A stretch of DNA of 64,000 nt from an uncultured Mycoplasma sp. (GCA_946500895.1 CAMMXG010000002.1:6574-70573), one strand, 5' to 3'. Positions 3,062-58,437 are shown, counted from the stretch's first letter. Numbers and translations are program-made. The notes: generated from the sequence alone by a model not told the origin.

Positions 3062-3236
3062 TAAAAAAGGTAGCACCAAAGGGCGAATATTTATCCGCGG
3101 TACCACCTTTATTTATAACTTATCTTTTTAACGCAAAGCTACGTAATATTCTAATCATTCAAATATTAGACTCCCAAGTGATTTTTTAAAAGACTATTCT
3201 CTAATTTCCACCAACCATTAGCTCTCTATGCAATTC
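3062..3236 (-). promoter_or_regulatory. T-box leader (tRNA-sensing riboswitch) with terminator/antiterminator, upstream of ileS
   Basis: The reverse complement contains AGAGAG, GGTGGAA and the T-box core AAGGTGGTACCGCGG (3095-3109). Its 5' part AAAGGTGGTACC can pair with GGTGCTACCTTT followed by TTTTAT (terminator, about 3062-3111). Specifier codon not resolved by eye. Confidence 0.8.
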
Positions 3237-3241
3237 ATCTT

Positions 3242-3511
3242 TTAAACGTCTTGTTCATCGTCTGTAACGCTATTTAAGTAGTCAAGTGCAAACATTGCAG
3301 ATATTGCTTCTATTATGTTTTCATCTTCTACTTCTTCGGTAAATAAATTACCATTTTCATTAATCTCTTTAAAATATTTATATTCACTTTTAGGCATTTC
3401 TTCTTCATCTATTTCTACACAATATAAATATTTATCATGATTAAACTCAGCTGTATCTAACACCATATACTCTACATTATCTTCTAATGTAATAATATCC
3501 TCTTTATTCAT
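3242..3511 (-). CDS. Small acidic protein, DUF1292-like (tentative)
   Basis: 89-aa ORF, Asp/Glu-rich. The pattern ITLEDN.EY.VLDT..F....YLY....DEEE resembles YrzB/DUF1292-type proteins. Its start shares nt 3511 with the stop of the upstream 1035-aa ORF (coupled). Confidence 0.4.
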   Translation of the reverse strand: MNKEDIITLEDNVEYMVLDTAEFNHDKYLYCVEIDEEEMPKSEYKYFKEINENGNLFTEEVEDENIIEAISAMFALDYLNSVTDDEQDV

Positions 3512-6500
3512 TATCGACTCCTTTTTGTAGTATCAATTTGATTCATGAAGTTTGCTACATCACTTCTGGCTTGAACTAACTCTTCATAATTATTCATATT
3601 ATATTTGCTTAAATCAATACCTGTTTCATCAAATACTAATTTTTGATACTCACTGGCTTTTGTCGTATCATTAGATTTGATTGCATCGATGTAATTATCT
3701 ACATAAGCTAATACTGTGTTTTTGCTTATTTTTGTATCATGATAATTCATATAATTAGCTACATCGCTTCTGGCCTGAACTAGTTCTTTATAATTATTCA
3801 TATCATATTTGCTTAAATCAATATTTGTGTCTTTCAATACTAATTGCTGATATTCACTAGCCTTTTTGGTATCGCCAGATTGCATTGCATCAATGTAATT
3901 ATCAACGCGACCTAATTGCACATCTTTGTCACTGAAAGTAGCATAAATTTCATCATCTGTTGGGATAGTAATTGTTACTGGAGCTGGTTCAGATGCTGGG
4001 CCTTTAATAACCGGTTCATCACTTAAAGCAGTAGGCCTTATATATTCGGCATCTTCGGCATGCTTAATACGATTGAATCTTTCATTAATACGGTCTTCGA
4101 TCATTTGCCTTTTTTCCTCTTCTACTTGATTTTGAACATTTTTTTCTATTTCTTCAAAATTATCATCGAGTGGCTCTACATCTTTTATATCTGGATCAAA
4201 GCCCATTTTAGCGTCCATTACTTCTTTTTCTAATTCCATATTATTTGCATTGGTTGCATAGGCTAGATTTTCAGTAAATTCGCTTGCTTTAGCAGATAAG
4301 GTTTTACCTAATTCTTTTGATTTATCTATTAATTTTTCTCCTAAATCTAATATGCGTCTTGCCACTGTTTTTCGATTTGGATCTGGAAGTCTGTTTTCGT
4401 CTTGCTTTATTAATCCTTTTATTCCTTTTACGGCTCCGACTGTACCTATTCCGATTATTCCTACTTTACCTAAAGCAGTAGCAAGGGCTGCGAAAGCTTG
4501 AGATGCAGCAACATTTAGATTTAACTCGCCAAGAGTTAGTCCTAAGGTATTTATAATTGTACTATTAATTCCCCCAAGTACTCCCGATAAAGCTGGATTT
4601 GCCATAGCTAAGCAACTATTAGCATAAACAATTGTTGGAGCTAAAGTAGATAGAGTATACAAAACGACGAAAGATGATACTCCAATCAATGCAAGCTTTT
4701 TCCAATTTTTCTTCCACCAATTTATAGTTTCAGGTTTACATTTACGAATTGCTTTTACCGCTCTTCTTTTTAGTGGTTCTTTTGGCGATTTTTTCTTATC
4801 TTCTTCAGAAGATTTGCTTTCTTCATTTGATTTTTCTTCCTCTGAAGTTAAAGTTTCAGTAGATGATGATGGAGTATCTTTCTTTTTACTCTCTTCTTCA
4901 GATGATGTCGAAGCAGATGATGATTGTCCGGAAGATGAAGTTCCCTTTTTGATTTTTGCTTCTTCTAATTCTTTTGCCACTTGCTGATATGCTTCAGCTT
5001 GATCACTATTTATTAAAGCACCATTTATTTCTGCTAAATCGCTGTTTGGATTAGCATTTTTTAAGATAGCATATTTTCTACTTAATAAATTATACTCTTC
5101 TAAGTCACTTGCTAGAATTTCTTTTCCTTCGGCTAAAGTGGCATTTGGTGTTGCTTTGGCTTTTTTTATTAAGTCTGTTAATTCTTGTTCTACTTCCTTA
5201 ATTAGTGGACCATTTTGCTCTTCTACTTTTTTTGCCATGAAATTTGGTGTAAAGTATTTCGTATTGTTTAATAATTCTTTATATTTTGGCATATCTTTAG
5301 AAGCTACATTGCCACCTTCACTGATACTAATTAAATTCTCTTTAGAGTTTTGCAAAATATTAATAATAGCTAAAACATTTTCGTATTCTTGTTTATCTTC
5401 GGGAAGAACAACTGCATTTGCTACTTGGGTTAAAGGAATATTGGTTAGACCTTGATAATTTCTAACTTTATCTTCTAAACTTGTTAAATATCCTTTTAGT
5501 TTGCTAATTAATATTTCATTTTCTTTTACTTTTTCTAAATCAGGATTGTATCCTTTAAAGTATTCTGTATTCTTTAATAGGTTTATAAATGGTTCTTTAT
5601 CTATTCCATTTACATAAGCAATATCCCAAACTGGTGTTAAAGCAAATTCAGTATTGTTTGCTCTATTTAATATTTGAAGTATTTTAATTAGATTATCATA
5701 CTCTAACTCATCACTTGGTAAGTTTTCGTTTTTAATTTTTTCTCTTAGTCGTTCTAATTCCTTAGAAATACTTGCAATAATTTTGTCATTTGGATTTTCT
5801 TCTTTTGGTGCTTCTTTGATTTCTTCTTTTTTTACTAAACTTAAAAAGTTTATTTTTGGTAACAATTCTTTTACAGCGTCTACTTGATGAGGATTTACAC
5901 AAAGAGTATTATCAACGCTTATAATTGGATCTTTTTCATTTACATTTTCAATTATTTTTAATAAAATGTATAAATTATCATAATTTTCTTTATCTTTGGC
6001 TAAAATAGAGGCACCATCTAATCCAAAGCCTATGGATGTACCTGCTCTGGTATTTAGATAACTTTCTCTTAAGAATTTCATTTCCTCTTCCACAGCTTTT
6101 TTTATTTCATTATTAACTTTATCTTTTATTTCGGCGATAGCATTTCTAATTATAATTTCGTTTTCTGATAAAGTTTTTAAGGAATTTTGAAGATTGGTAA
6201 TCTCTTCCCAAGTTTTAGGATCAGAAATATTTCTACTGTTTAAATCAGCTAAAGCTTTGCGATATTTTTCACGATCATTTGCATTAATTGCAAGACTTCT
6301 ATTTAAAGCATCTAGGCGATCTAATTCACTTTTATTCATAGAATATAGTTCATAAGCTTTAGATAAAACATGTTCGCCCTCAACTCTAGCTAGTTCATCT
6401 GATAATTCATAATATACTTCTTTAATATAATCGTCATTATTAACAATTACATTGTTTTTTAAACCGTAATAAAATCTAGCATTTGCTTTAAACTCATCTA

Positions 6501-18341: not shown

Positions 18342-19415
18342 CTAATAATTTCTTTCAATATATTTTGTTATTTTATGATTATTAGAATATTTAAAAGTAA
18401 AGCGATAATTATTAATAGATGAAAAATATTTGGAAAAAGTTATTTGCTTTTTATTATATAAATCATTACTATTTTTTATTCTTTTTTGTACTTTATTCCA
18501 TGTTTCTTTTCTAAGTTTTATTATTGTCTTTTTATTTCTTATTTTAAAATAATAACCTAAAAAGACGAATCCTTCTTTTGTATTAATTATCTTTGTTTTA
18601 TTTTCATTAATATTCAAATGATAAATGTTATTTAATTGATATTTTATTTTAATTAGACATTCTGCCAAATAATATTTGTCATGATGAAATATTAAAAAGT
18701 CATCCATATATCGAACATAATACTTTAAATGTAAATTGTGAATAATATAATGGTCTAATCTATTTAAATAAAAAATGCTTAAAAATTGACTTGTTAAATT
18801 ACCAATAGGAAGGCCTTTACCAAATTCATAATTTGGTAAACTAAAATTTTTTTCTTGATATTTTAAAATCGTACGATATACATAATATTCATTTGTAATA
18901 TCAATAATAGAATTAATTATTTTATATTCTGAAATAGTTAATTCATTTTTAATCATTCTTTTTAATACTTCATGATCAATATGATAAAAATACTTAGAAA
19001 TATCTATTTTTAGTACATATACTTGATCGTATTTTTTAAGTTGTTCTAAATATTTTTTAACCAACTTTATTCCATAATCGCTACCCATATTCTTTCTCGT
19101 AGCAATATTTCTATGGTCTAAATACTTTTCTAATTTTGGTTTTAAAATAAACTCTGTAACGTAATGATTAATGATTTTATCATGTATACTTAGGGACATT
19201 ACAATTCTTTTTTTAGGCTCTCTAATTAAAAAAATATTATAGTGTTCTACCCTATAATTATTATTTTTTAGTTCATAATAAATATTGATTAAATTTTGAA
19301 ATTTATTTCTTTCAAAATTTAATAATTTTTTCTTGTTTTTTACATTTTTACTAATTTGATGCTCATAAATAAATAATAGATCTTTAAACTTTACTTCCAT
19401 TTTTAATCCATCCAT
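18342..19415 (-). CDS. DGR-type reverse transcriptase
   Basis: FLIREPKKRIV, KIDISKYFYHIDH, GLPIGNLTSQFLSIFYLNRLDH (DGR-typical I/LGxxxSQ) and YVRYMDDFLIF (YxDD). An alternative start at 19400 (MEVKF) has the better RBS. Overlaps avd by 17-32 nt. Confidence 0.9.
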   Translation of the reverse strand: MDGLKMEVKFKDLLFIYEHQISKNVKNKKKLLNFERNKFQNLINIYYELKNNNYRVEHYNIFLIREPKKRIVMSLSIHDKIINHYVTEFILKPKLEKYLDHRNIATRKNMGSDYGIKLVKKYLEQLKKYDQVYVLKIDISKYFYHIDHEVLKRMIKNELTISEYKIINSIIDITNEYYVYRTILKYQEKNFSLPNYEFGKGLPIGNLTSQFLSIFYLNRLDHYIIHNLHLKYYVRYMDDFLIFHHDKYYLAECLIKIKYQLNNIYHLNINENKTKIINTKEGFVFLGYYFKIRNKKTIIKLRKETWNKVQKRIKNSNDLYNKKQITFSKYFSSINNYRFTFKYSNNHKITKYIERNY

Positions 19416-19722
19416 AAATCATTTTGGTTATAACAGATAATTCTTGTACTTTATGTATACATGTTTTTTCACTAATATACTTCTTCTTAAACGATTCTTC
19501 AAAATAAAAATCTAACATATTAATTTTAGATATAATTAATTGTTGTTCTTCTAACTTATCTTGTTTTAAATTAGCAAGTAATATTAATTCTAATATTTCA
19601 TAACTTGTACTTTTTATTTTGTCTTTTAGTATTTTTTCACTTTTAGGATAATTAATTAAAAAAGAATCTAGAGATAAAATAAATTGCTTCATATTTTTTA
19701 CAATTCGAAACTCATTATTCAT
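19384..19722 (-). CDS. avd: Avd-like four-helix-bundle accessory protein
   Basis: 112 aa and helical, with the ...INYPKSEK..L...I....YEILELILLAN...... and ...KMIYGWIKN pattern typical of four-helix-bundle/Avd proteins. Lies immediately upstream of, and overlapping, the RT. Confidence 0.7.
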   Translation of the reverse strand: MNNEFRIVKNMKQFILSLDSFLINYPKSEKILKDKIKSTSYEILELILLANLKQDKLEEQQLIISKINMLDFYFEESFKKKYISEKTCIHKVQELSVITKMIYGWIKNGSKV

Positions 19723-20074
19723 TCACCAGTTTTTCAATTCCTTCTAATATTTGAAGCAACTCGCTTTCATCTTTTTCTTCCAATTTTAATTCAATATTAT
19801 GAATTAAATTTTGAACAACTATTTTGTCTTTAGATTTTGCTAAATAAAAAGCATATTTATTTAAATCTTTAAAATCTTTTGTTATATTCTCGCCAATAAT
19901 CTTATAATTAATTTTTTTTGCTTCCAAAATATTTATTACTTTATTAATTGCATTACTTGGAAAGCCTACTTTCCTATCTATTACTTTATAATCTAATAAA
20001 TAATGCAATATGAAAGCATCATCATCAAATACTTGATAAAATAAACCCATTTTTCTAATTGTTACAAATTTCAT
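19715..20074 (-). CDS. MutS-domain-I-like small protein (MSL2), DGR accessory candidate
   Basis: 119 aa. VTIRKMGLFYQVFDDDAFILHYLLDYKV..RKVGFPSNAINKVINILEAKKINYKII resembles the MutS mismatch-binding domain (GDFYE..DA....L......G.P......L...G..V). Overlaps the avd start by 8 nt. Confidence 0.5.
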   Translation of the reverse strand: MKFVTIRKMGLFYQVFDDDAFILHYLLDYKVIDRKVGFPSNAINKVINILEAKKINYKIIGENITKDFKDLNKYAFYLAKSKDKIVVQNLIHNIELKLEEKDESELLQILEGIEKLVNE

Positions 20075-20227
20075 TTTAATTCCTTTCTTAATATATAGTA
20101 CTAGGAAAGTGACGTATCACTTTCCATCTATATATGTTATTCAAGGCTAAGCCTTAGGATAAGTAATGTTTTCTAACATACACAAATTATAGTCTTAACC
20201 ATAAAATCCCGATTATTAGAAAGCTCT
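20075..20227 (-). ncRNA. Candidate DGR RNA spacer (Sp-like) 3' of the TR, with two hairpins
   Basis: Non-coding. GGAAAGTGA-cgta-TCACTTTCC (20104-20125, 9-bp stem) and AAGGC-taa-GCCTT (20143-20155). No U-run follows either hairpin on the minus strand. Confidence 0.4.
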
Positions 20228-20329
20228 AGGACGGACCCCGTTCGAGTTGTTCGCATTGTTGTTGTTGTTCACATAACCAGTATTGTTCACATTGAAGACG
20301 TTGTTCGAATTCGACGAGTTCGGTTTTTT
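20228..20329 (-). repeat. DGR template repeat (TR)
   Basis: Non-coding. The minus strand reads (AAAAAA)CCG AAC TCG TCG AAT TCG AAC AAC GTC TTC AAT GTG AAC AAT ACT GGT TAT GTG AAC AAC AAC AAC AAT GCG AAC AAC TCG AAC GGG GTC CGT CCT, with 15 AAY codons in the VR frame. The 5' limit (20323 versus 20329) is uncertain. Confidence 0.9.
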
Positions 20330-20337
20330 ACTAATAC

Positions 20338-20631
20338 TTACCCTACAATTTTATTTAATATTTTTCTAATTGTTTCTAAATAAAAATATTTATTATACTG
20401 ATTATTTTCATCAGCATATTTACTTATAATATCTAAATTATCTAATATTAGATAATTAATATGTTTTTCTTGTAGTTGATGCTCTATATTCACATTTGTC
20501 TTTAAATGTTTTAGTATGAGAGCATCAATACCATAAGAAACATATTTTCCTTTTCTTATAATTACCACAAGGTATTCTTGATGTTTTTTCTTAGCAATGT
20601 AATATCTATTATATATTCCCACATTTACCAC
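20338..20631 (-). CDS. MutS-domain-I-like small protein (MSL1), paralog of MSL2
   Basis: 97 aa. LVVIIRKGKYVSYGIDALILKHL...EKHINYLIL aligns with VTIRKMGLFYQVFDDDAFILHYL...KKINYKII of MSL2. Stop lies 8 nt before the TR. The start may be GTG at 20622 (better spacing to AGGAAG). Confidence 0.45.
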   Translation of the reverse strand: MVNVGIYNRYYIAKKKHQEYLVVIIRKGKYVSYGIDALILKHLKTNVNIEHQLQEKHINYLILDNLDIISKYADENNQYNKYFYLETIRKILNKIVG

Positions 20632-20656
20632 TTCCTACCTGTGGATAAGTGGCGCC

Positions 20657-20688
20657 GGCTCGGGAAGACTTCCCTCTTCCTGCGAGCC
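20657..20688 (-). other. GC-rich hairpin 4 nt downstream of the DGR target stop codon
   Basis: Plus strand GGCTCG-GGAAG-a-CTTCC-ctcttcctg-CGAGCC, preceded by the palindromic GGCGCC. No U-run on the minus strand, so not an obvious terminator. Striking in AT-rich surroundings. Confidence 0.5.
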
Positions 20689-20691
20689 TTA

Positions 20692-21912
20692 TCACACCTC
20701 CAAAGTGTATGGACTATTACTAGTTCCATCACCTCCTGAGATTTTCACATTCGATGTTAGATATACCGAAGGACGGACCCCGCCCGAGCCGCTCGCACTG
20801 CCGTTGCTGTACACAAAACCAGTAGAGTACACATCGAAGACACTGCTCGAACCCGACGAGCTCGGCGTAAGTGTCCATTGATAAGTACTGCTATCATAGA
20901 GCCAGTCATTGTTCTTGCAATCGCTAAAACTTGATGAATCCCAATCGTACAACTCTTTTGCTAAACATGCATCCCTATTTGTGGTTGAACCACCACTTGT
21001 GGCATATCCATAATCACTTGGATACATTAAAGCTACTTTCCCACTCCATGTTGTTGGTCTTCCACTATATACTGTTGTTCCTCTTTCATATCCATAAAAA
21101 TGACTTGCTAGTCCATTCCTGGAACTTGTATAACTTGCTGTTCCACCAAGTTTCCATGTTACCGTTTCAATCATATTTCTTGCTGTATCACTTTTTATCC
21201 CAGTACTAGCATAGCTTCCACTTCCATTTAAATAATCCCCATTCAATGTTGTTTGTAAACTGGCTGTGTACCAATCATTTACGGTACCACTATCCCAAGC
21301 AATACTACCTAATGATTCGCTTCTTATTATTTTAATTAATTTTTGTCCACTTACACCATGAGTATCTTCACTAAATACACCAATAATTCTCCATAATTCA
21401 TCATTAAACAAAACATAATTGTTTGGATCTGCTCCTATATATCTTAAATTATTTGCTTCATCATATGCTAACATGTTTGGATTAGTGTTATAAGCTTCTT
21501 CTATTACATCTACTGCTGGCGTTCCTTTTGATTCTTCAAAATACAGGGTACATTTAGTGCCCTTGGTTGTATAAGGAGCAATCGTAAATGTTTTGGTATC
21601 ACTATCATAGTTTAATGTTAAATTTTGAATTGTGCTACCATCTTTATAGGTACAGGTACTTTGAGTGGTATCTAGTGTATAGTTTTTAGAACTATCTAAT
21701 TCTTCTGATGCTACTCCATCAATGTATAGTGCTACAATATTTAGATCTGCCAAGCTATAATTGATTGTTCCATTTACTAAAGGTATTGATTGTGTCACTC
21801 GGTATTTTGCTCTGGTAAAATTTAGTACTACGGCACTAATAATTAGTACTGCTACTACTCCTATCATAATATTTCTTTTTAAATGGCTTTGTTTTAAAGT
21901 TTCGAACTCCAT
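20692..21912 (-). CDS. DGR target: membrane-anchored surface protein with C-terminal variable region (paralog family member 1)
   Basis: 406 aa with an N-terminal anchor (IMIGVVAVLIISAVVLNF). The C-terminus ...QWTLTPSSSGSSSVFDVYSTGFVYSNGSASGSGGVRPSVYL... is encoded by the VR. Shares family motifs with the ORFs at 30834, 41300, 55426 and 57156. Confidence 0.85.
   Translation of the reverse strand: MEFETLKQSHLKRNIMIGVVAVLIISAVVLNFTRAKYRVTQSIPLVNGTINYSLADLNIVALYIDGVASEELDSSKNYTLDTTQSTCTYKDGSTIQNLTLNYDSDTKTFTIAPYTTKGTKCTLYFEESKGTPAVDVIEEAYNTNPNMLAYDEANNLRYIGADPNNYVLFNDELWRIIGVFSEDTHGVSGQKLIKIIRSESLGSIAWDSGTVNDWYTASLQTTLNGDYLNGSGSYASTGIKSDTARNMIETVTWKLGGTASYTSSRNGLASHFYGYERGTTVYSGRPTTWSGKVALMYPSDYGYATSGGSTTNRDACLAKELYDWDSSSFSDCKNNDWLYDSSTYQWTLTPSSSGSSSVFDVYSTGFVYSNGSASGSGGVRPSVYLTSNVKISGGDGTSNSPYTLEV
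20770..20871 (-). repeat. DGR variable repeat (VR)
   Basis: Over 20771-20865 versus TR 20229-20323 (95 nt) I count 21 differences. Twenty are at TR adenines of the minus strand (20 of 32 A positions) and one is C->T (TR 20300 / VR 20842). The other 62 non-A positions are identical. Confidence 0.9.
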
Positions 21913-21991: not shown

Positions 21992-22187
21992 CTTTTCAAT
22001 TTCTTTCTACTATGTTTTTCTATGATATATTTTTACTATACATTATTATTGAGTGATTGTCAATTATTTTGTAATTTTATTTTTATATTTTGTTATATTT
22101 ATTTACTTTTTATTCCTTATCACTATGTGTAGTTCTCTGTTTTAATATTTTGTGTAAAAATGATTACATAAGAAAGAGAGTTTTAAG

Positions 22188-22646
22188 ATGATGAGACTAA
22201 AAAAGGTAAGAATATATGCTGATTTAAAGCAAAGAGAAGTTGCGGAAATTCTAGGAGTATCTAGGAACAGTTATAACATGTGGGAAAGAGAAAATGATTT
22301 AATTCCATTAAGACAATTAGATAAGTTTTGTAATATCTTTCATGTATCACTAGATTATGTTTTAGGCTTCACTGATGTTTGGGAATATGAAAATAGTAAA
22401 AGAATTGATCCTAAATTACTTGCTAAAAGAATTAAAAGAATTAGACGCGAAAATGATTTGACTCAAGATGAGCTTGCTAAAATTCTTAATATTACTCGTT
22501 CTTCTATTAGTAAATATGAAAATGGCATTAATCTTGCTCTTACGAGTTATATTATAGGCTTTTGTAAATATTTTCATGTTTCGGCTGATTTTGTAACTGG
22601 TAAAATTGAAGAAGAAATTAAATTGGAAGTAGGAGTTAAAAATTAG
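22188..22646 (+). CDS. XRE-family regulator with two tandem HTH domains
   Basis: Two Cro/C1-type HTH units (LKQREVAEILGVSRNSYNMWE and LTQDELAKILNITRSSISKYE). Divergent from the DGR target gene. Confidence 0.8.
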   Translation: MMRLKKVRIYADLKQREVAEILGVSRNSYNMWERENDLIPLRQLDKFCNIFHVSLDYVLGFTDVWEYENSKRIDPKLLAKRIKRIRRENDLTQDELAKILNITRSSISKYENGINLALTSYIIGFCKYFHVSADFVTGKIEEEIKLEVGVKN

Positions 22647-22683
22647 AATTTGTTCTAATTTTTTTGTGCCATATTTTACCACT

Positions 22684-22712
22684 TGTTTTTGTACTATTGT
22701 TCGTTTATAATT
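22684..22712 (+). promoter_or_regulatory. Candidate promoter (TTGTTT-N17-TATAAT) with a LexA/Cheo-box-like GTAC-N4-GTTC in the spacer
   Basis: ttgttt (22684-22689), gtactattgttc (22692-22703) and tataat (22707-22712). One mismatch to GAAC-N4-GTTC. Confidence 0.35.
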
Positions 22713-22717
22713 AAATT

Positions 22718-23989
22718 ATGGTGATGCATATGGATACGGTTTATTTACACAGACATTTTTTGTGTATTGATTTAAAAAGTTTTTTTGCTAGTTGTGAATG
22801 TATTGAAAGAGGACTCAATCCTTTTACTTATCCTTTAGTGGTTGCGAATCCTACTCAAGGTAATGGTGCCATTACTCTAGCTGTTAGTCCTTATCTAAAA
22901 ACGAAAGGTGTTCCCTCTCGAGGACGACTTTATCAAATACCAAAACACATTCAATATACCATTGCTAAACCAAGAATGAATCTTTATTTAGCTAAATCCA
23001 AAGAAGTTGTTTCCATATATTTAAAATATGTTTCCAAAGATGATTTACATATTTATTCGATTGATGAATGTTTCTTAGATGTTACGGATTATTTAAAAAT
23101 GTATGGAAAAACAGATTATGAACTAGCTTTAGATATTTTAGAAGATGTTAAAGCATCTACTGGGTTATGTGCTACTTGTGGGATTGGGCCTAACATGTTA
23201 CTTGCCAAAATTAGTATGGATATTGAAGCAAAACATAATGATGATTTTATTGCTAAATGGGATTATGATGATATTCCAACTAAATTATGGAGTATTGCTC
23301 CCCTATCCAAAGTTTGGGGAATTGGTCCTAGGATGGAAGCTAATTTAAACAAAATGGGTATTTACTCTATGTACGATTTAGCTCACTATGACCGCCATAA
23401 ATTAAAACAAAGATTTGGCGTAATTGGTTTAGAATTATGGAACCATGCAAATGGCATTGATTTAAGTCGAATTGGCGATATGGGAAAGATAGAAGATAAA
23501 TCTTATTCTCATAGTCAAGTATTATTTAAAGATTATAATGGGAACAATATTAAAATTATTATTCGGGAGATGGTGGAAGTAATAGCTATTCGCCTTCATA
23601 AAAATCATAAAACAACTTCTATTATTGGTCTTGGAATTGGATATTCTAAAAGTGTGGGTGGTGGATTTTTTCATCAAATCAAACTGAATAATCCAACTGA
23701 TGTAGAACAAGCTATTTTAGCCAATTGTCTTATGATTTTTGATAAGTTTTATGAGGGACTACCCATTCGTAAAGTTACTATCTCTTGTGGCGAGCTAAAA
23801 GATAAAACAGGAGTACAATTAAATATCTTTGATGAAGTAGAAAAAATAAAAGAGCAAGAACAAATAAATCAAGCTATTTTAGATATTAAAGATAAATATG
23901 GAAAGAATGCCCTTTTAAAAGCTTCAAGTTTACTTAACGATTCTACTATCCATGAGAGAAACAAAAAGATTGGAGGTCATAACGCATGA
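22718..23989 (+). CDS. Y-family (translesion) DNA polymerase, UvrX/YqjW/UmuC-like
   Basis: FLCIDLKSFFASCE and SIDECFLDV catalytic motifs; 423 aa. Followed by a YolD-like gene, as in the Bacillus uvrX-yolD and yqjW-yqjX pairs. Confidence 0.9.
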   Translation: MVMHMDTVYLHRHFLCIDLKSFFASCECIERGLNPFTYPLVVANPTQGNGAITLAVSPYLKTKGVPSRGRLYQIPKHIQYTIAKPRMNLYLAKSKEVVSIYLKYVSKDDLHIYSIDECFLDVTDYLKMYGKTDYELALDILEDVKASTGLCATCGIGPNMLLAKISMDIEAKHNDDFIAKWDYDDIPTKLWSIAPLSKVWGIGPRMEANLNKMGIYSMYDLAHYDRHKLKQRFGVIGLELWNHANGIDLSRIGDMGKIEDKSYSHSQVLFKDYNGNNIKIIIREMVEVIAIRLHKNHKTTSIIGLGIGYSKSVGGGFFHQIKLNNPTDVEQAILANCLMIFDKFYEGLPIRKVTISCGELKDKTGVQLNIFDEVEKIKEQEQINQAILDIKDKYGKNALLKASSLLNDSTIHERNKKIGGHNA

Positions 23990-24294
23990 TTGACCGTGGT
24001 TTTGTAAAATGGCAACCTTTTAATAGTATTACACCCCTTAAAGATACGATTGCTGACATTGAAAATAAAGAAAAAGATACCAGACCAATTTTATTTCCCG
24101 AAGAAGCAAATGCAATTAGTGAAGCTTTAATTGATGCTTATTATAGTAAAGAAGTTATTTCTATTACTTATTATGAAGCTGGAAAGATAAATACAATTAC
24201 AACTACTGTAAAAAAAATAAATCCAAACTCAAAAACGATTGAGCTTGGATCTAGTAAAATTATTTCTTTTAAGCAAATTGTACATATTTCTTAA
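23986..24294 (+). CDS. YolD-like protein
   Basis: 102 aa, MIDRGFVKWQPFNSI... 4-nt overlap with the polymerase gene. Confidence 0.65.
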   Translation: MIDRGFVKWQPFNSITPLKDTIADIENKEKDTRPILFPEEANAISEALIDAYYSKEVISITYYEAGKINTITTTVKKINPNSKTIELGSSKIISFKQIVHIS

Positions 24295-27245: not shown

Positions 27246-27321
27246 TGGTGATCTGTATGGGATTTGAACCCATGAATGTTGCCTTGAGAGGGCAATGTGT
27301 TAACCGCTTCACCAACAGACC
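27246..27321 (-). tRNA. tRNA-Glu, anticodon CUC
   Basis: 76 nt, GGTCTGTTGGTGAAGCGGTTAACACATTGCCCTCTCAAGGCAACATTCATGGGTTCAAATCCCATACAGATCACCA. Cloverleaf folds by hand: acceptor 7 bp, anticodon stem TTGCC/GGCAA, U33-CUC-A37, T-loop TTCAAAT, encoded CCA. The D-arm resembles bacterial tRNA-Glu. Confidence 0.85.
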
Positions 27322-30833: not shown

Positions 30834-32573
30834 TTAAGTTTCTACTACATATGGATTTAAAGATGTGCCATTACCCGAAGAAAATGTAGTACTAGCCTTC
30901 AAATTTACTACTGGACGCACACCAATCTGGCTAAACACGTTCGGATAGAGAAGGCCATTTGAATACACATGAAATACCCAAGCACTGCCACTAGATCCGC
31001 TAAAATTAGACGGAGACATGGTCCAATAGTTTTGTCCTGTATATAGGTAATAACTTTGGTTGTTTGCTCCATATACTCCTCCGGCATAGGCTACCTCATC
31101 GGCACTGATTAACCCAATTGGATATTGTAATGCTTTATTTCCATTACTACTTCCAGAAACTGTATATAAATCGCTATCATTTGCACATTCAAATGTTGGT
31201 TGTCTATTTGTTACTAATCTGATATATCCTCCATAGTATGTTGTGGTGGTCCCTGTGCCTCCTTGCCCATTACTAACAGATTCATTTGTACTTGGCGTTC
31301 TATCTCCACAGAAGCCAGCATTTCCATCTAAATCGTCGGCATAACTTGCTAGATTATTTGTGTACCATGTGTTTAATGCTGTTAGGATTGTACTATTTGT
31401 TCCAGTTCCATGGACATTGTTTGTTGTGTATTTTAATCCTACATAGGCATTATTATTAGATGAACTATTGAATGCACTTATATTTGCTAACTGTGTTCCA
31501 CTTCCAGTTGCAGTATTACTTGTACCTTGATAAATTAATCTTAAACTTCCATCTTCATTAATCCTTATGATGCGCCAATAGAAGCCTGCAAATTGTACCC
31601 AGTTATCACTTGGATTTCCTGCAAAATAGTAGGTTCTTCCTTTACTTGTATCTTCATAATAGATTGTTCCTGTTGTATCTTCTGTTACTGTTACGCTAAA
31701 GTCGTTTCTGGTCGCTAGGTTTTTACTTGCGATTATTTCTTCAATTGTTATTAGTTGTTTAGCTATTAATGGTTCACTACATATTATTTTGCTTGTTCCA
31801 TTTAATCTTGTACATACTACTTGTTCTTCTTCACTTTCTTCTAATTCTATTGTGTAACTATTATTTTGGATTGTTGCATTTGTATTTGGTGTACATATAT
31901 TATCTGCTGTTACACAATATGTTGCACTTGTTACATTATTTGTTAATGTGGAAGTGACTGTTGTATTATCAACACCAAATTTTGCTTCTAATGTGTCTAC
32001 TACTTGTGTTTCTGGGTTTGCTACAACATTTATCTTTGATGAATATACTTTATTTGCAGCTTGTTCTACTGTTGCATCATAGTCTAACCATAATCTTAAA
32101 TGATATGTCTTTGTTTCATCGGCATTTAGTGTTCCAGTGTAAAGATTATATGCTTCATAAGCTCCTTCTACTTCTGGTGTTACACTTGTATTATCACTTA
32201 ATATAGATATTACATTATCATTGGTATCACTTGATAATGCTACTTTGATATAATTAGCACTAAGTGAGTTCGCTTGTTCATTTAAACTTTCTAAATTAAC
32301 TTGATAATTTGTCGCTGTATTACATGTATTTTCAATCGTAAAATCATAACTCGTTCCTGATAGTCCTTCTACATCAGTGATTGGTAATATATTATTTAAA
32401 CTGATAGAACTAGAATTACTTGTTAAACTGATATTTAAACAACCACTTTGAAAAGTATTCGCTGTATCTTGAATACCACCTGTACTAAAGAAGGCAAATG
32501 TAATTCCTATTACTCCTATTAAAATAACTACAATTCCCCCAACTAATAATGATATTTTAGTACCTTTATTCAT
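30834..32573 (-). CDS. Surface-protein paralog 2 (same family as the DGR target), not templated by the TR
   Basis: 579 aa with an N-terminal signal/anchor (ISLLVGGIVVILIGVIGITFAFFS). Core TGTIYYEDTSKGRTYYFAGNPSDNWVQFAGFYWRIIRINEDGSLRLIYQG, NAGFCGDR, LQYPIGLISADEVAYAGG and YWTMSP...GVRPVVNL. Confidence 0.8.
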   Translation of the reverse strand: MNKGTKISLLVGGIVVILIGVIGITFAFFSTGGIQDTANTFQSGCLNISLTSNSSSISLNNILPITDVEGLSGTSYDFTIENTCNTATNYQVNLESLNEQANSLSANYIKVALSSDTNDNVISILSDNTSVTPEVEGAYEAYNLYTGTLNADETKTYHLRLWLDYDATVEQAANKVYSSKINVVANPETQVVDTLEAKFGVDNTTVTSTLTNNVTSATYCVTADNICTPNTNATIQNNSYTIELEESEEEQVVCTRLNGTSKIICSEPLIAKQLITIEEIIASKNLATRNDFSVTVTEDTTGTIYYEDTSKGRTYYFAGNPSDNWVQFAGFYWRIIRINEDGSLRLIYQGTSNTATGSGTQLANISAFNSSSNNNAYVGLKYTTNNVHGTGTNSTILTALNTWYTNNLASYADDLDGNAGFCGDRTPSTNESVSNGQGGTGTTTTYYGGYIRLVTNRQPTFECANDSDLYTVSGSSNGNKALQYPIGLISADEVAYAGGVYGANNQSYYLYTGQNYWTMSPSNFSGSSGSAWVFHVYSNGLLYPNVFSQIGVRPVVNLKASTTFSSGNGTSLNPYVVET

Positions 32574-41299: not shown

Positions 41300-42667
41300 T
41301 TACGTTGCTATGACATAAGGGTCTTGAATATCGCCTGTTCCATTTAAAACAATATCAGCACGTAAATTAATAACAGGACGAACATGATAACGACTCGAAG
41401 ATGTCATACCCCAGCCTGGACCAGTTTTATTTACATAAAAAACTTGAGCATATATTCCTTCCTCTTCTCGATAAATAATGCCAACCGGTGTCATGGTCCA
41501 ATAAACATGACCCATTGATAAATAATGCCCTCGATTATTTATGTTCTCAGTTGCTCGCCAAGCAAAACCTGAAAAAATTACTTCATCTAAAGTTATTAGA
41601 CCAATTGGATAAGTTAGAGCTTTATTGCCTTTACTAGAAGATTTAACTGTATATAAATCTTGCTCATTAACACATTTTAAACTTGGTTTTGCTTCTCTAT
41701 AATATGCACCTAACCTAAATCCATTATAATATGTTTCATCTTGCTTAATTCCTGTTCCGCTGCTTATACTTCGGTCTCCACAAAATCCGGCATTTTTGTC
41801 TATATATTGTTCATACTCTGTTCCATATATATTATCTTTATACCAATCATCTACATAATCCTTAATAATACTATCATTAATATTCGCATGTGTTTCTTCA
41901 TAAGTGTTGCTTCCTGTATTACCATACATATATCCTACATATGCATTATCACTATCGTTATTAAAAGAACTAATCCCAATACCAGCTCCATATCCTATTT
42001 GGGTTGGGCCAGTTGTGCTATTTCCGCTATATATTAATCTTAAACTTCCATCTCCATTAATACGAATGATTCGCCAATAAAAATCTGCAAATCGAATCCA
42101 ATTATTAGTTGGTGAACCAACATAATAGTAACTTAAACCATCATCATCTTCTTCGGCATAAATCATATCACTATTTTCTATAGAAATACTTTTTGTAAAA
42201 TTATTTCTTTTACCTATTATTTTAACATTCTTTAATAAAGTTTGACACGCTAAATCTTCATCAGAACATTCCTTTACTATGTTTTTATTAAAATATAAAT
42301 AACATTTTGTTCCTTTTTGGGATAGATTTGATATGTCTATCTTTTGATTTCCATACTGAATGTTAATATCGTTATTTTTTACCCCATTAATTTCACAATA
42401 GCTTTCTTGATCATTAAGATAATAACCACTACTGGGTACTACGTCAATACTTTCATATTCACCACTATCATTTTCTTGATACATGGCTATCATTTTAAAA
42501 TCATATGGTTTGTAGTTAATAGTACCATTTACTAAAGGAATGCTCTGTGTTACTCGGTACTTTGCTCTAGTAAAATTTAAAACAACTGCACTTATGATTA
42601 CTACTACCAATACTCCTGTCATAATATTTCTTTTTAAATGACTTCTTTTTAATACTTTAAAATTCAT
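41300..42667 (-). CDS. Surface-protein paralog 3
   Basis: 455 aa. Residues 9-52 are nearly identical to the DGR target N-terminus (SHLKRNIM...IISAVVLNFTRAKYRVTQSIPLVNGTINY). Core YYYVGSPTNNWIRFADFYWRIIRINGDGSLRLIYSG, NAGFCGDR, LTYPIGLITLDEV and YWTMTP...VRPVINL. Confidence 0.8.
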   Translation of the reverse strand: MNFKVLKRSHLKRNIMTGVLVVVIISAVVLNFTRAKYRVTQSIPLVNGTINYKPYDFKMIAMYQENDSGEYESIDVVPSSGYYLNDQESYCEINGVKNNDINIQYGNQKIDISNLSQKGTKCYLYFNKNIVKECSDEDLACQTLLKNVKIIGKRNNFTKSISIENSDMIYAEEDDDGLSYYYVGSPTNNWIRFADFYWRIIRINGDGSLRLIYSGNSTTGPTQIGYGAGIGISSFNNDSDNAYVGYMYGNTGSNTYEETHANINDSIIKDYVDDWYKDNIYGTEYEQYIDKNAGFCGDRSISSGTGIKQDETYYNGFRLGAYYREAKPSLKCVNEQDLYTVKSSSKGNKALTYPIGLITLDEVIFSGFAWRATENINNRGHYLSMGHVYWTMTPVGIIYREEEGIYAQVFYVNKTGPGWGMTSSSRYHVRPVINLRADIVLNGTGDIQDPYVIAT

Positions 42668-55425: not shown

Positions 55426-57156
55426 TTAAGCAATACGATATGGATCTGTACTTGTTCCTGAACCTGATAAGTTGAGGTCAGCACGTAGGTTGATGACAGG
55501 GCGTATATCTAAAGTATCTCGCATGTCTCCAAAATCAAAATTTCCAATATAATTCATAGTAAAGCCAGTGGCTGTAGGATACGAGTAAGGGGTTATTGTC
55601 CAATAATCTGTTTCCGTATATAAATAGAATTGATTATTAATAGTATTTTGCACTCCTCCGGCATATGCTATTTCATCTGCAGTAATTAATCCGATTGGAT
55701 ATTGTAATGATTTATTTCCGTTTGCACTTCCGGTTGTTGTGAACAAATCACTACTATTACTACATTCAAAACTTGGTTGTTTATTATTTACTAATCGATT
55801 ATATGCTGCATAATATGTTGTACTTGTTCCTATTCCACTTCCACTGTATAGTGTTCTATCATTACAAAATCCTGCATTTCCATCTATTTTGTTTGCCTCA
55901 TTCATCAAATTATTTTGAAACCATGTATCCAACACTCCTTTGATGGTACTATTACTAGTTAAACCATGTACTTGCTCATTTTGATACATGTATCCTACAT
56001 ACATATTATTATTATTTGCAGAGTTAAATGAGCTTGTTCCAATTGATGCGTTTGAAGCATTTGTATTTGTGCTTGTTCCTTGGTATATCATTCTGATTGT
56101 TCCATCTTCATTGATGCGTATTATCCGCCAATAGAATCCTCCAAATTGTACCCAGTTATCGGTTGGATTTCCTGCAAAATAGTAGGTTCTTCCTTTTGAT
56201 GTATCTTCATAGTAAATGGTTCCTGTTGTAGTATTTGTTAAGGTTGTACTAAAGTCGTCTCTTGTGAGTTTCGTTGGGTAATTTACTAATATGGTTTCTC
56301 CTGCTGTTGGTACATGTTCATCAAAATACAATGTACATTCTGTATTAGTTGTGTTTAAGTTTGATACATATATTTGTTCTTCTTCACTATCCCATCCGAT
56401 ACTGGCATTATTATTACATGTACTCTCTTCTGTATTTAATGTATATCCCTCTTCTGGGATATTTGTAGCTTTTTGATATTCACCATTATTTTCAATGTAA
56501 ATTCCTGCTATAGTTAAATCACTTGTAACTTCATTTTCTTCGATTGTGATTTCACCACTAAATGTGCCTCCTATATCTATATTTTGACTTTCATCTAAAT
56601 TTGGATATTCTAATATGACATAATAATATACTACTTCTCCATCTAAACTTGATGTTATAAATTCATCTGGTATTAATGTTACTTTTGTGTTTCCATTTTC
56701 TATTGTTCCTGTTGATATAATACTTCCTAAAGCATCTATATTACTTATACTACATTCTTCATAATAGATTTTACTCGCTCCCATATTTCCTATTACTTTA
56801 TTACAACTGGCACTTACATCCATTTCACTTGTTGTTTTATATACGGTATAATTAATAGGAGTATTTAAAGTATTGGTTCCTTCCCATATGACATTATAGG
56901 GAATTAAAACGTTATCTCCTGTTGCTGTTAATTTAATACTTGATACATTTTGGTGTCCTGGATAAACATCTAAATCATTAAATGATAAAGAGCCTTCTAC
57001 TATTAATTCTGAACCCTTTATAGTAGCAGTAGAAGCTTCTATTTCTGTTCCACTTCCACCTACAAAACTAGAAGCAGCAAAATATGCTAGAGATACTCCT
57101 ATTACTACTAATAAACAACTTACTATGATTATTAATTTTTTATTCTTCTCTTTCAT
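55426..57156 (-). CDS. Surface-protein paralog 5
   Basis: 576 aa. Core TGTIYYEDTSKGRTYYFAGNPTDNWVQFGGFYWRIIRINEDGTIRMIYQG, NAGFCNDR, LQYPIGLITADEIAYAGG and YWTITP...IRPVINL. Its start overlaps the stop of paralog 4 (TAATG). Confidence 0.8.
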   Translation of the reverse strand: MKEKNKKLIIIVSCLLVVIGVSLAYFAASSFVGGSGTEIEASTATIKGSELIVEGSLSFNDLDVYPGHQNVSSIKLTATGDNVLIPYNVIWEGTNTLNTPINYTVYKTTSEMDVSASCNKVIGNMGASKIYYEECSISNIDALGSIISTGTIENGNTKVTLIPDEFITSSLDGEVVYYYVILEYPNLDESQNIDIGGTFSGEITIEENEVTSDLTIAGIYIENNGEYQKATNIPEEGYTLNTEESTCNNNASIGWDSEEEQIYVSNLNTTNTECTLYFDEHVPTAGETILVNYPTKLTRDDFSTTLTNTTTGTIYYEDTSKGRTYYFAGNPTDNWVQFGGFYWRIIRINEDGTIRMIYQGTSTNTNASNASIGTSSFNSANNNNMYVGYMYQNEQVHGLTSNSTIKGVLDTWFQNNLMNEANKIDGNAGFCNDRTLYSGSGIGTSTTYYAAYNRLVNNKQPSFECSNSSDLFTTTGSANGNKSLQYPIGLITADEIAYAGGVQNTINNQFYLYTETDYWTITPYSYPTATGFTMNYIGNFDFGDMRDTLDIRPVINLRADLNLSGSGTSTDPYRIA

Positions 57157-58382
57157 TATGCTGCTCCTTCTACTGTATATGGATCACTACTTGTTCCTGA
57201 ACCTGTTAATGTTACATTTGCTTTTAGATTGATTACTGGTCGGATATCATGTGTATTATCCACACCGTTGCCAATAATAAAACCGTCCGAAGCCACACGT
57301 AACACGTAAGCATAACCACCGTCGGTATAAAACGGTGACATAGTCCAATAGTTTTGACCTGTATATAAATAATAACTACTATTACTTGATAGGTATCCTC
57401 CTGCGTACCATGCTTCATCCATACTAATTAGTCCGATTGGATATTGCAATACTTTATTTCCATTTGTGCTTTTATTTGTTGTATATAAATCACTACTATT
57501 ACTACATTCAAATGTTGGCTGTTTATTATTTACTAATCTATTATACGCTCCATAATAAGTTTCTGCTGTTCCGGTTCCTCCTGAACCATTACTACTTGAT
57601 GAACTCGTACTGGGTGTTCTATCTCCGCAGAATCCTGTATTTCCATCTAAATCATCGGCATAACTTGCTAGATTATTTTGATACCATGTATCTAATACTC
57701 CTTTGATGGTACTATCACTCGTTAATCCATGCACTTGATTACTTTCATACATATATCCTACATACATATTATCAAGATAAGATGAATTGAATGCACTTGT
57801 TCCTATTTGTGTTCCTTCTCCTGTTGCGTTGGTATTTGTTCCTTGATAAATTAATCTCAATGTTCCATCTTCGTTAATTCGGATGATTCGCCAGTAAAAT
57901 CCACCAAATCGTACCCAGTTATCACTTGGGTTTCCTGCAAAGTAATATGTTCTTCCGTTAGACGTATCTGCATAATAGATTGTTCCTGTTGTTGTTTCTG
58001 TTACAGTAACACTAAAATCATCTCTTGTTAGTTGTGTTGAATAATTTGCTAAAATTGTATCTTTTACAGTTAATATATTAAAATATAAATAACAACTTGT
58101 TCCATCCGTTTCAAGATTATTTAAATATAATTTATTATCTTTCCATACTGGTGTTGTGTTATTTGTACATATACTTCTTTCAGTATTTAGAGTATATCCC
58201 GTTTGAGGCAAGCTTGATGATTCTTCATATCCTCCCTCTTCTTTTTCTATATAAAATGCTAATGAAGTATTTGTTGTATCTTCTTTTTCTTCTATTAGTA
58301 CTTGTTTTTCTTCTTTTGGTATGCTTAATATTCCTATCGTTAATACTACTATTCCTACTAAAACTAATCCTACTTTTTTCAT
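57156..58382 (-). CDS. Surface-protein paralog 4
   Basis: About 408 aa from MKKVGLVLVGIVVL (ATG 58382, GGAAG RBS). Core TGTIYYADTSNGRTYYFAGNPSDNWVRFGGFYWRIIRINEDGTLRLIYQG, NTGFCGDR and YWTMSP...IRPVINL. Confidence 0.8.
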   Translation of the reverse strand: MKKVGLVLVGIVVLTIGILSIPKEEKQVLIEEKEDTTNTSLAFYIEKEEGGYEESSSLPQTGYTLNTERSICTNNTTPVWKDNKLYLNNLETDGTSCYLYFNILTVKDTILANYSTQLTRDDFSVTVTETTTGTIYYADTSNGRTYYFAGNPSDNWVRFGGFYWRIIRINEDGTLRLIYQGTNTNATGEGTQIGTSAFNSSYLDNMYVGYMYESNQVHGLTSDSTIKGVLDTWYQNNLASYADDLDGNTGFCGDRTPSTSSSSSNGSGGTGTAETYYGAYNRLVNNKQPTFECSNSSDLYTTNKSTNGNKVLQYPIGLISMDEAWYAGGYLSSNSSYYLYTGQNYWTMSPFYTDGGYAYVLRVASDGFIIGNGVDNTHDIRPVINLKANVTLTGSGTSSDPYTVEGAA

Positions 58383-58437
58383 ATAATCTTCCTTTACTCC
58401 ATTCATTTTATATCAGATAAATACTTTATCCAAGCGA

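Follow-up and report, generated by a model that had tools for sequence, protein, structure and literature searches.

The window analysed here is a stretch of 64,000 nucleotides (nt) from an uncultured Mycoplasma sp. (GCA_946500895.1, CAMMXG010000002.1:6574-70573), and positions are counted from its first letter. Positions 18342 to 21912 hold a complete and intact cassette on the minus strand, which consists of a target gene, a small open reading frame (ORF) similar to MutS domain I, a template repeat (TR), a structured spacer, a MutS-like gene (MSL), avd and a gene for a reverse transcriptase (RT). We read this cassette with high confidence as an intact chromosomal diversity-generating retroelement (DGR) of the MSL-plus-Avd type. 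An earlier reading, made from the sequence alone, had also proposed a DGR; the proposal is borne out by the DGR-type RT, the Avd homologue, the non-coding TR, the adenine-specific differences in a 3'-terminal variable repeat (VR) of the target gene, and a TR that stays nearly constant as opposed to a hypervariable VR. The ORF of 406 amino acids (aa), the Avd ORF (112 aa) and the RT with its IGNLTSQ and YMDD motifs lie at the positions given in the sequence-only reading. In the 5' to 3' direction of the minus strand the features are as follows.

22035-22063, minus strand: promoter-like site, TTGACA-17 nt-TATAGT, the best consensus match in the region (11/12), about 120 nt upstream of the target start codon
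20692-21912, minus strand: target (variable protein) gene, 406 aa, with a predicted signal-anchor helix, a beta-sandwich and a DUF6273 ectodomain
20770-20865, minus strand: VR, target codons 350-381, from the alignment with the TR and from population entropy
20657-20688, minus strand: GC-rich stem-loop after the target stop codon, from folding (dG -27.1 kcal/mol, z -2.7)
20338-20631, minus strand: small ORF, 97 aa from a GTG (94 aa as called elsewhere), a probable shortened MSL paralogue by profile comparison
20228-20323, minus strand: TR, non-coding, starting 14 nt past the small ORF's stop codon
20075-20227, minus strand: spacer between TR and MSL, 153 nt, with motifs that are kept in relatives with 40-56% RT identity
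20104-20125, minus strand: UACG-capped hairpin of 9 bp near the 3' end of the spacer, with compensatory changes across 18 cassettes
19715-20074, minus strand: MSL (MutS-like, MutS domain I), 119 aa, from Pfam MutS_I matches
19384-19722, minus strand: Avd, 112 aa, overlapping MSL by 8 nt and the RT gene by 32 nt
18342-19415, minus strand: DGR RT, 357 aa, with IGNLTSQ and YMDD motifs and RT family matches

Promoter-like sites are in total as frequent as in shuffled sequence, and the site at 22035-22063 is a candidate by its consensus match alone.

Re-alignment of the two repeats reproduced the ungapped match at an offset of 542 nt that had been reported before. It covers 96 nt, with both copies on the minus strand (TR 20228-20323, VR 20770-20865), and the probability that chance alone would place a 96-nt repeat as good as this one somewhere in the window is about 1e-12. 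The VR belongs to the 3' part of the target gene and is followed by 25 codons. The TR is located inside the 263-nt gap between the small ORF and MSL, where no ORF of 50 aa or more spans it on the minus strand. Both repeats close at their 3' end with the same GC-rich 13-mer, CGGGGTCCGTCCT. The GC content is 46% in the TR and 61% in the VR, compared with 19-20% in the region of the RT and accessory genes and 29% in the whole window.

When the mismatches are tabulated by TR base they are concentrated at adenine and not spread over the four bases. Among the 21 differences in 96 nt, 20 occur at TR adenines (15 A>G, 4 A>T and 1 A>C), so that 20/32 TR adenines are changed; the remaining one is a C>T exchange, and 63/64 of the non-A positions are unchanged in the VR. 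The hypergeometric probability of this bias is 1.9e-11. In the VR frame the TR adenines occupy only codon positions 1 and 2, and 15 of the template codons are AAY. The TR translates in this frame into PNSSNSNNVFNVNNTGYVNNNNNANNSNGVRP and the VR into PSSSGSSSVFDVYSTGFVYSNGSASGSGGVRP. Both peptides and the number of AAY codons agree exactly with the sequence-only reading. Its 21 differences, with 20 of 32 at adenines and one C>T, were correct as well, while its alignment length of 95 nt and its 62 of 63 unchanged non-A positions were each one too low. The repeat spans which it had extended to 20329 and 20871 are right in their core, but six 5' bases (20324-20329) are outside the homology; they read AAAAAA in the TR and CTTACG in the VR, where they encode L348 and T349. 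L348 is invariant and T349 nearly invariant among relatives.

The RT was recognized by Pfam RVT_1 (E 4e-20) and phrog_1423 (E 1e-70). The closest solved structure is 8ub7_A, a chain of 328 aa deposited as 'Reverse transcriptase' (E 1.5e-20), which we take from its length and motifs to be the bRT of Bordetella phage BPP-1. The alignment of the two proteins has the common motifs GLPIGNLTSQ / GIPIGSLTSQ and RYMDD. RTs of the DGR clade are characterized by (I/L/V)GxxxSQ instead of the group II motif QGxxxSP, and by a catalytic YxDD. A search of phage records with the RT gave 104 matches, including Faecalibacterium phage Lagaffe, Bordetella phages and phage nd12; all of them, the phage DGR RTs included, have no more than 35% identity. 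The neighbouring Avd protein matched the NCBIfam model DivGenRetAVD (NF033474) over its full length (E 7.6e-14), Pfam bAvd (E 3e-8) and the PHROG family 'Avd protein of DGR' (E 1e-12).

The same data bear on the question of whether the RT could come from a group II intron, a retron or a defence system, in which case the repeat would be an ordinary partial gene duplication. The top named NCBIfam match of the RT is in fact the group II RT/maturase model. However, its 91.6 bits are far under the cut-off of 300, and the same holds for Drt3a (54.7/200) and Drt2 (38.7/390). The PDB matches that follow 8ub7_A are a group II maturase (E 2.3e-7) and a Cas6-RT-Cas1 protein (E 1.8e-6), so that the presumed bRT leads the solved relatives by 13 orders of magnitude. 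Rfam scans at the gathering threshold and at E<=1 gave no match at all in or near the cassette, hence none to a group II intron or a retron RNA, and an avd gene lies immediately upstream of the RT gene. Furthermore, an ordinary duplication does not give adenine-specific mismatches at p 2e-11. The Rfam results, the low NCBIfam scores and the presence of a TR/VR pair effectively rule out the non-DGR RT systems, and we give this explanation practically no weight.

Variation among strains and relatives

In the following the window is locus L001; other L labels denote related loci and P labels denote target homologues. The TR is identical in the window and in three other strains (L002-L004, L005/L010 and L006), whereas their VRs differ. 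The exceptions are L007, with one C/T polymorphism in the TR, and L015, in which a different base is exchanged at the 5' edge. Taken together, the VRs of the five strains that share the locus differ from the TR at 93 TR adenines and at 9 non-A positions.

The same contrast is visible at the protein level. We aligned the 30 closest target homologues (88-94% identity) and computed the mean column entropy. It is 2.62 bits for the 17 VR codons whose TR codon contains an A, 0.20 bits for the 15 other VR codons and 0.147 bits for the 364 columns of the rest of the target. Template codons with a single A vary as expected, in that ACT (T364) gives A, S and P, and TAT (Y366) gives F, C and S. The A-site-restricted variability of the VR which the sequence-only reading had proposed to look for is present in the related strains and in the 30 homologues, with a TR that is nearly invariant among the strains. 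Five of the homologues (P0006, P0014, P0015, P0016 and P0029) have the 5' part of the VR in common (RSSSSYYVF...) and differ in the 3' part; this fits with conversion tracts that are anchored at the 3' end.

Such variation could also be a legacy. If the DGR in this strain had been silenced recently or were active only very rarely, the VR differences would reflect past retrohoming and would since have been inherited and shuffled by recombination. The C>T mismatch between TR and VR is relevant here. Its site is a TR position that is polymorphic between strains (AAT in the TR of L007, AAC in that of the window), and TR drift or recombination is for this reason a better explanation than an RT error; at least the 5' quarter of the VR in the window does not match the current TR allele. 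Identical VRs were also found in separate assemblies, namely P0001 on 3 contigs and P0015 on 3 contigs, and cassette copies in the sister strains L005, L006, L010 and L015 are decayed. In L005 (8345-9487) and L010 an IS605-family TnpB takes the place of most of avd and of the 5' two-thirds of the RT gene. The VR of L005/L010 has a G>A exchange in the GC-rich anchor and an in-frame deletion of 3 nt, as expected once a DGR is dead. L015 is similar, in that its Avd is reduced to the same remnant and its RT fragment is displaced. In L006 the MSL gene (1027-1424) is split into two overlapping frames by an apparent frameshift; the RT is 100% identical to that of the window, and the VR has four non-A changes and a 3-nt deletion. 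The cassette of the window, in contrast, has five intact ORFs with compact overlapping starts, the YMDD motif and an intact TR, and only 1/64 of the non-A positions has changed. Moreover, many A-site changes separate strains that are otherwise almost identical. We consider a silenced or nearly silent element unlikely on this balance and prefer the reading of an intact DGR.

Target protein and genomic setting

The target protein has only one strongly hydrophobic segment, residues 15-33 (IMIGVVAVLIISAVVLNFT). It is preceded by Lys and Arg and has no lipobox cysteine. The segment therefore probably serves as a signal anchor, which would leave the rest of the protein outside the cell. The full-length AlphaFold model (predicted local distance difference test score, pLDDT, 71.5; predicted TM-score, pTM, 0.67) is composed of a helix, a beta-sandwich and a large alpha/beta domain. 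We assign the anchor helix to residues 15-33, the beta-sandwich to about 57-127 and a DUF6273 C-type-lectin-like ectodomain to about 130-406.

This assignment depends on fold comparison; sequence profiles of 30 close and 59 diverse target homologues gave nothing significant against solved structures. In a Foldseek search of the PDB the only significant match of the full-length model was 9qa6, the immunoglobulin A (IgA) peptidase of Thomasclavelia ramosa (E 7e-7, 314 columns). A model of residues 128-406 alone returned the same single match (E 2.3e-4, TMq 0.47); it did not improve the confidence in the VR, and matches to the lectins Lcl and CD23 stayed below significance. In the T. ramosa peptidase, residues 31-322 make up an N-terminal domain with the annotation DUF6273 (PMC12402451); this domain has been described as a C-type-lectin-like fold of enlarged size that resembles the C-terminal domain of Legionella Lcl (PMC12237041). 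Judged from the length of the match and the lack of an HExxH motif in the target, the similarity to 9qa6 probably falls on this DUF6273 domain. Pfam DUF6273 itself gave a sub-threshold match over target residues 333-385, and some homologues carry PF19789.

DUF6273 is a known scaffold of DGR targets in phages, the tentaclins and related proteins (PMC10743442), and the ectodomain of the target matches the fold of these proteins and of 9qa6. It differs from them in that the domain is here at the C-terminus of a membrane-anchored bacterial protein, with a beta-sandwich before it, and the sequence identity to the phage DUF6273 proteins and to 9qa6 is below 20%. The IgA peptidase itself is not known to be diversified. 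The view of the sequence-only reading that the target is a cell-surface ligand-binding protein is a reasonable one, given the hydrophobic N-terminal anchor and the fold-level assignment of a C-type-lectin-like ectodomain.

The target has more than 7900 homologues, nearly all of them metagenomic; the few annotated ones come from 'Candidatus Caccenecus avistercoris' (Bacilli incertae sedis). Four paralogues are encoded in the window on the minus strand (30834-32573, 41300-42667, 55426-57156 and 57156-58406). Each of them combines an N-terminal anchor with a C-terminal domain of the type ...YWT(M/I)(S/T)P...(V/I)RPV(I/V)NL..., and in the paralogue of 455 aa the first ~50 residues are almost identical to those of the DGR target. 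None of the four has DNA similarity to the TR, so that no second VR and only one DGR target is evident in the window. The homologues and the four paralogues suggest that membrane-anchored, lectin-like surface proteins of this type form a large family in such organisms.

The structural relatives of the target raise the question of whether the cassette belongs to a cryptic prophage or another mobile element, with a phage receptor-binding protein as target. In a library of viral structures the matches were gut phage proteins of the DUF6273, 'receptor binding protein' and tail-fibre types. The GC content of the RT and accessory genes is low for the window, as mentioned, and genes for ORF6N, Fic/RhuM and a Y-family polymerase/YolD module are nearby. 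On the other hand, the 10 kb to each side contain no capsid, terminase, portal, tail or integrase gene. The cassette is flanked by housekeeping genes, and their synteny is kept in several strains. The genes of this locus in the sister strains are, in order, those for homoserine O-succinyltransferase, YolD, Y-family polymerase and XRE regulator, the DGR, and those for a DNA-alkylation repair protein, a tRNA-editing protein, ORF6N and FIST. A comparison of the cassette DNA with 50,697 phage records gave no match. The target has an N-terminal membrane anchor, and its four paralogues, which are not diversified, are interspersed with core genes, gyrA among them. A prophage origin is thus very improbable. 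The earlier statement that there is no phage context agrees with these flanks, with the occurrence at the same site in several strains represented by metagenome-assembled genomes (MAGs), and with the result of the phage search; the element is best described as a chromosomal DGR.

MutS-like genes and RNA structures

The MSL ORF gave a Pfam MutS_I match with E 2e-3, and 9/9 of its close homologues matched the same family, the best with E 4.6e-6. PDB profile searches yielded only weak matches to MSH6 domain I (E ~0.1). An exhaustive profile search collected 803 cluster representatives, and among those listed most are stand-alone proteins of ~120 aa. A scan of the domain library detected no HRDC domain in any ORF of the cassette. 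Proteins of this kind have been described as the MSL class, with 112-283 aa, always together with avd and never with HRDC, in 'Architecture D' DGRs (Wu et al. 2018, PMC5758913). The cassette resembles this architecture in its stand-alone MutS-domain-I protein, which at 119 aa is within that size range, in the presence of avd, in the absence of HRDC and in the location of all parts on one strand. The survey contained 16 such DGRs (PMC5758913), compared with at least 343 metagenomic relatives of the present RT lineage.

A further difference from Architecture D is the small ORF. Alone it had no match in scans of the Pfam, NCBIfam and PHROG libraries. It is kept in close strains and has homologues of 36-38% identity in L008 (3430-3711, Erysipelotrichaceae MAG) and L009 (6082-6387, Clostridium sp. 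CAG:451), in both cases directly after the RT gene. A relation to MSL was weak at first, both in a BLASTP comparison of the two ORFs and in two profile comparisons (E 0.057 and E 0.0011). It became convincing once the homologues from L008 and L009 were added to the profile, which then matched the MSL family in hhalign with a probability of 87% and E 3.9e-6. In the profile alignment the small ORF is without a segment of ~14 residues around the conserved GFP motif of MSL. The small ORF hence reads as a shortened MSL paralogue, which may correspond to one of the 'PAG' candidates of PMC5758913. It was present in 22/39 of the well-covered cassettes.

This number comes from a survey of the best 80 of the at least 343 relatives, mostly from gut samples, that were found in a metagenome scan with the RT profile; the counts are limited to loci with enough flanking sequence. 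By the same count Avd was present in 55/56 and MSL in 49/56 of the related cassettes. The small ORF is located either between target and MSL, as in the window, or directly after the RT gene and before a second target gene. Relatives whose RT is 40-56% identical carry A-biased TR/VR pairs of their own and, for the most part, an equivalent set of genes. RTs with 99-100% identity come from MAGs named 'uncultured Bacilli bacterium', and those with 41-52% identity from MAGs of Erysipelotrichaceae, CAG:451, Tenericutes, Acholeplasmataceae and Mycoplasmatota. The RT lineage is common in gut metagenomes. In two relatives from Mycoplasmatota/Acholeplasmataceae (L014 258-965 and L012 178-437) the TR occurs in two tandem identical copies, and an extra VR-like copy, heavily diverged and not part of any long ORF, separates the VR from the TRs.

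Among the conserved motifs of the spacer the clearest is the hairpin at 20104-20125, with 9 bp in the arrangement GGAAAGUGA-UACG-UCACUUUCC. Compensatory changes occur at 9/9 pairs across 18 distinct cassettes. Paired cells make up 88.9% of the alignment, compared with 61% in shuffles and 34-53% with the partners slid, in a set in which 10/18 sequences came through a filter that required pairing. The hairpin is also present in L008, L009, L019-L025, L028, L032, L043, L048, L051, L052, L074, L079 and L094. It stays beside the TR whatever gene comes next, even in L009 and L030, which have a separate convergent TR-spacer transcript. In BPP-1 the spacer supplies the priming site and the binding site for the RT-Avd complex; by analogy, the spacer with its UACG hairpin is presumably part of a functional DGR RNA and may serve in RT/Avd binding and priming. 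In L009 (Clostridium sp. CAG:451) the spacer segment with the UACG hairpin occurs twice (2510-2575 and 6422-6487), the second copy being ~80% identical and 4 kb away from the DGR.

The stem-loop directly after the target stop codon (20657-20688) has two stem segments of 6 bp, a bulge of 2 nt and the 6-nt loop GGGAAG. It is identical in close strains, and distant relatives have other stem-loops at the same place. The hairpin/cruciform structures of phage DGR targets are 4-34 bp downstream and have a 4-nt GRNA loop (PMC3240598). The structure found here is a candidate for the counterpart of these elements, or may be a structure at the end of the transcript. No Rfam family covers the spacer, the UACG hairpin or the post-stop hairpin.

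Proposed mechanism and related systems

The data show the parts of the cassette, the restriction of the differences to adenines, the near-constancy of the TR and the hypervariability in the population; from these we infer how the enzymes act, where priming takes place, what the two hairpins and the MSL proteins do, and that the element is at present active in this strain. The cassette would be transcribed from the minus strand, and the TR together with the structured spacer would form the DGR RNA. A complex of RT and Avd would bind the spacer, copy the TR into cDNA and misincorporate nucleotides opposite the template adenines. The 3'-terminal VR of the target would then be replaced by this cDNA, which would be anchored at the shared 13-mer and resolved by homology at a variable point on the 5' side. 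Randomization of the 15 AAY codons, the one ACT and the one TAT codon could give ~7e18 different peptides. The randomized residues are predicted to be on the surface of the membrane-anchored DUF6273 ectodomain, so that the ligand specificity of the surface protein would change. The two MutS-domain-I-like proteins probably act on the mismatched heteroduplex between cDNA and VR, or shield it from mismatch repair.

Some observations weigh against the reading of the cassette as an intact and working DGR. The VR data consist of one sequence per assembly and give no direct support for current activity in this strain. Both Avd (51.9 bits for DivGenRetAVD, curated cut-off 80) and MSL (18.7 bits for MutS_I, cut-off 20.6) score below the curated cut-offs of their families. 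The structure models of the target are moderate (pLDDT 71.5 for the full length and 67.7 for the ectodomain) and poor within the VR. The post-stop hairpin, the sole GC-rich one, is 82 nt past the TR/VR identity and has a loop of 6 nt, unlike those of phage DGRs. Finally, target codon 344 (20881-20883), six codons upstream of the VR, is hypervariable (Y/A/T/I/H, 1.82 bits) without a template in the present TR.

The changes at codon 344 are of the type that would be expected from an AAT template. Codons 342-344 read GGC AAT AAT in L006, and L015 has a 6-nt deletion at this place. The codon may be a relic of an older and longer TR, may encode a residue that is under selection and packs against the surface of the VR, or may have been altered by exchange among paralogues. 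An extension of the TR on the 5' side of CCG, either ungapped or with a 9-nt gap, was rejected as the source of a template; this flank does not template codon 344 and is conserved even in L079.

The similarity to the BPP-1 DGR (mtd VR, avd, TR, spacer, brt) is extensive. Both systems have adenine-specific differences between an AAY-rich TR and a VR at the 3' end of a gene for a protein with a C-type-lectin fold. They also have in common Avd, an RT with IGxxxSQ and YMDD, a GC-rich 3' end of TR and VR, and a structured spacer after the TR. Unlike BPP-1, the present cassette is chromosomal and not phage-borne, and it has two MutS-domain-I-like accessory genes. The order here is target, small MSL-like ORF, TR, spacer, MSL, avd and RT, compared with avd, TR, spacer and brt in BPP-1. 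The 25 codons after the VR and the distance and loop size of the downstream GC-rich hairpin are also different.

Chromosomal DGRs that diversify bacterial surface proteins are represented by Legionella LdtA and Treponema TvpA. The present system resembles them as a cellular DGR with a surface-displayed target of the C-type-lectin fold. In contrast to both, the anchor is apparently an N-terminal hydrophobic helix that stays uncleaved, in place of a lipoprotein signal; the host belongs to the Bacilli and is a low-GC gut bacterium that is uncultured, and several VR-bearing targets are not evident within the window. The Legionella DGR also carries an MSL gene (PMC5758913).

The mechanism and the target scaffold are thus already known for DGRs, and the cassette belongs to the known MSL-plus-Avd architecture, with no new mechanism. 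The element is a clean chromosomal DGR with all parts intact, it comes from a low-GC gut bacterium that is uncultured, and the natural hypervariation in the population is restricted to A sites as expected; its value is that of a well-resolved representative of a gut-abundant lineage with the MSL-plus-Avd accessory set. The features most worth following are the shortened MSL paralogue and the covarying spacer hairpin; we found no mention of either in the literature searched. How the cDNA becomes integrated into the target is, to our knowledge, not yet understood in any DGR, and the two MutS-domain-I-like genes and the covarying hairpin offer handles on mismatch recognition and RNA structure.

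It is conceivable, albeit doubtful, that the lineage uses an undescribed accessory set of MSL, its shortened paralogue and the UACG spacer hairpin, in which the pair of proteins would recognize the adenine-mutagenized cDNA:VR heteroduplex or protect it from mismatch repair. In its position the shortened paralogue follows either the TR or a second target gene. Retrohoming in BPP-1 does not, as far as we know, require MutS; if the suggestion were true, this step in the lineage with the MSL pair would be mechanistically different from the BPP-1 paradigm.

The neighbourhood of the cassette contains several other genes. Directly upstream of the target, on the plus strand (22188-24294), are those for a tandem helix-turn-helix XRE regulator, a Y-family polymerase of the ImpB/UmuC type and YolD, and the gene for the DNA-alkylation repair protein is directly downstream of the RT gene. 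This association is probably coincidental since it is kept in sister strains and not in more distant DGR relatives. At its gathering threshold Rfam gave just two matches in the window, a T-box leader at 3076-3267 (minus strand, 105.9 bits) and a tRNA gene at 27249-27321 (minus strand).

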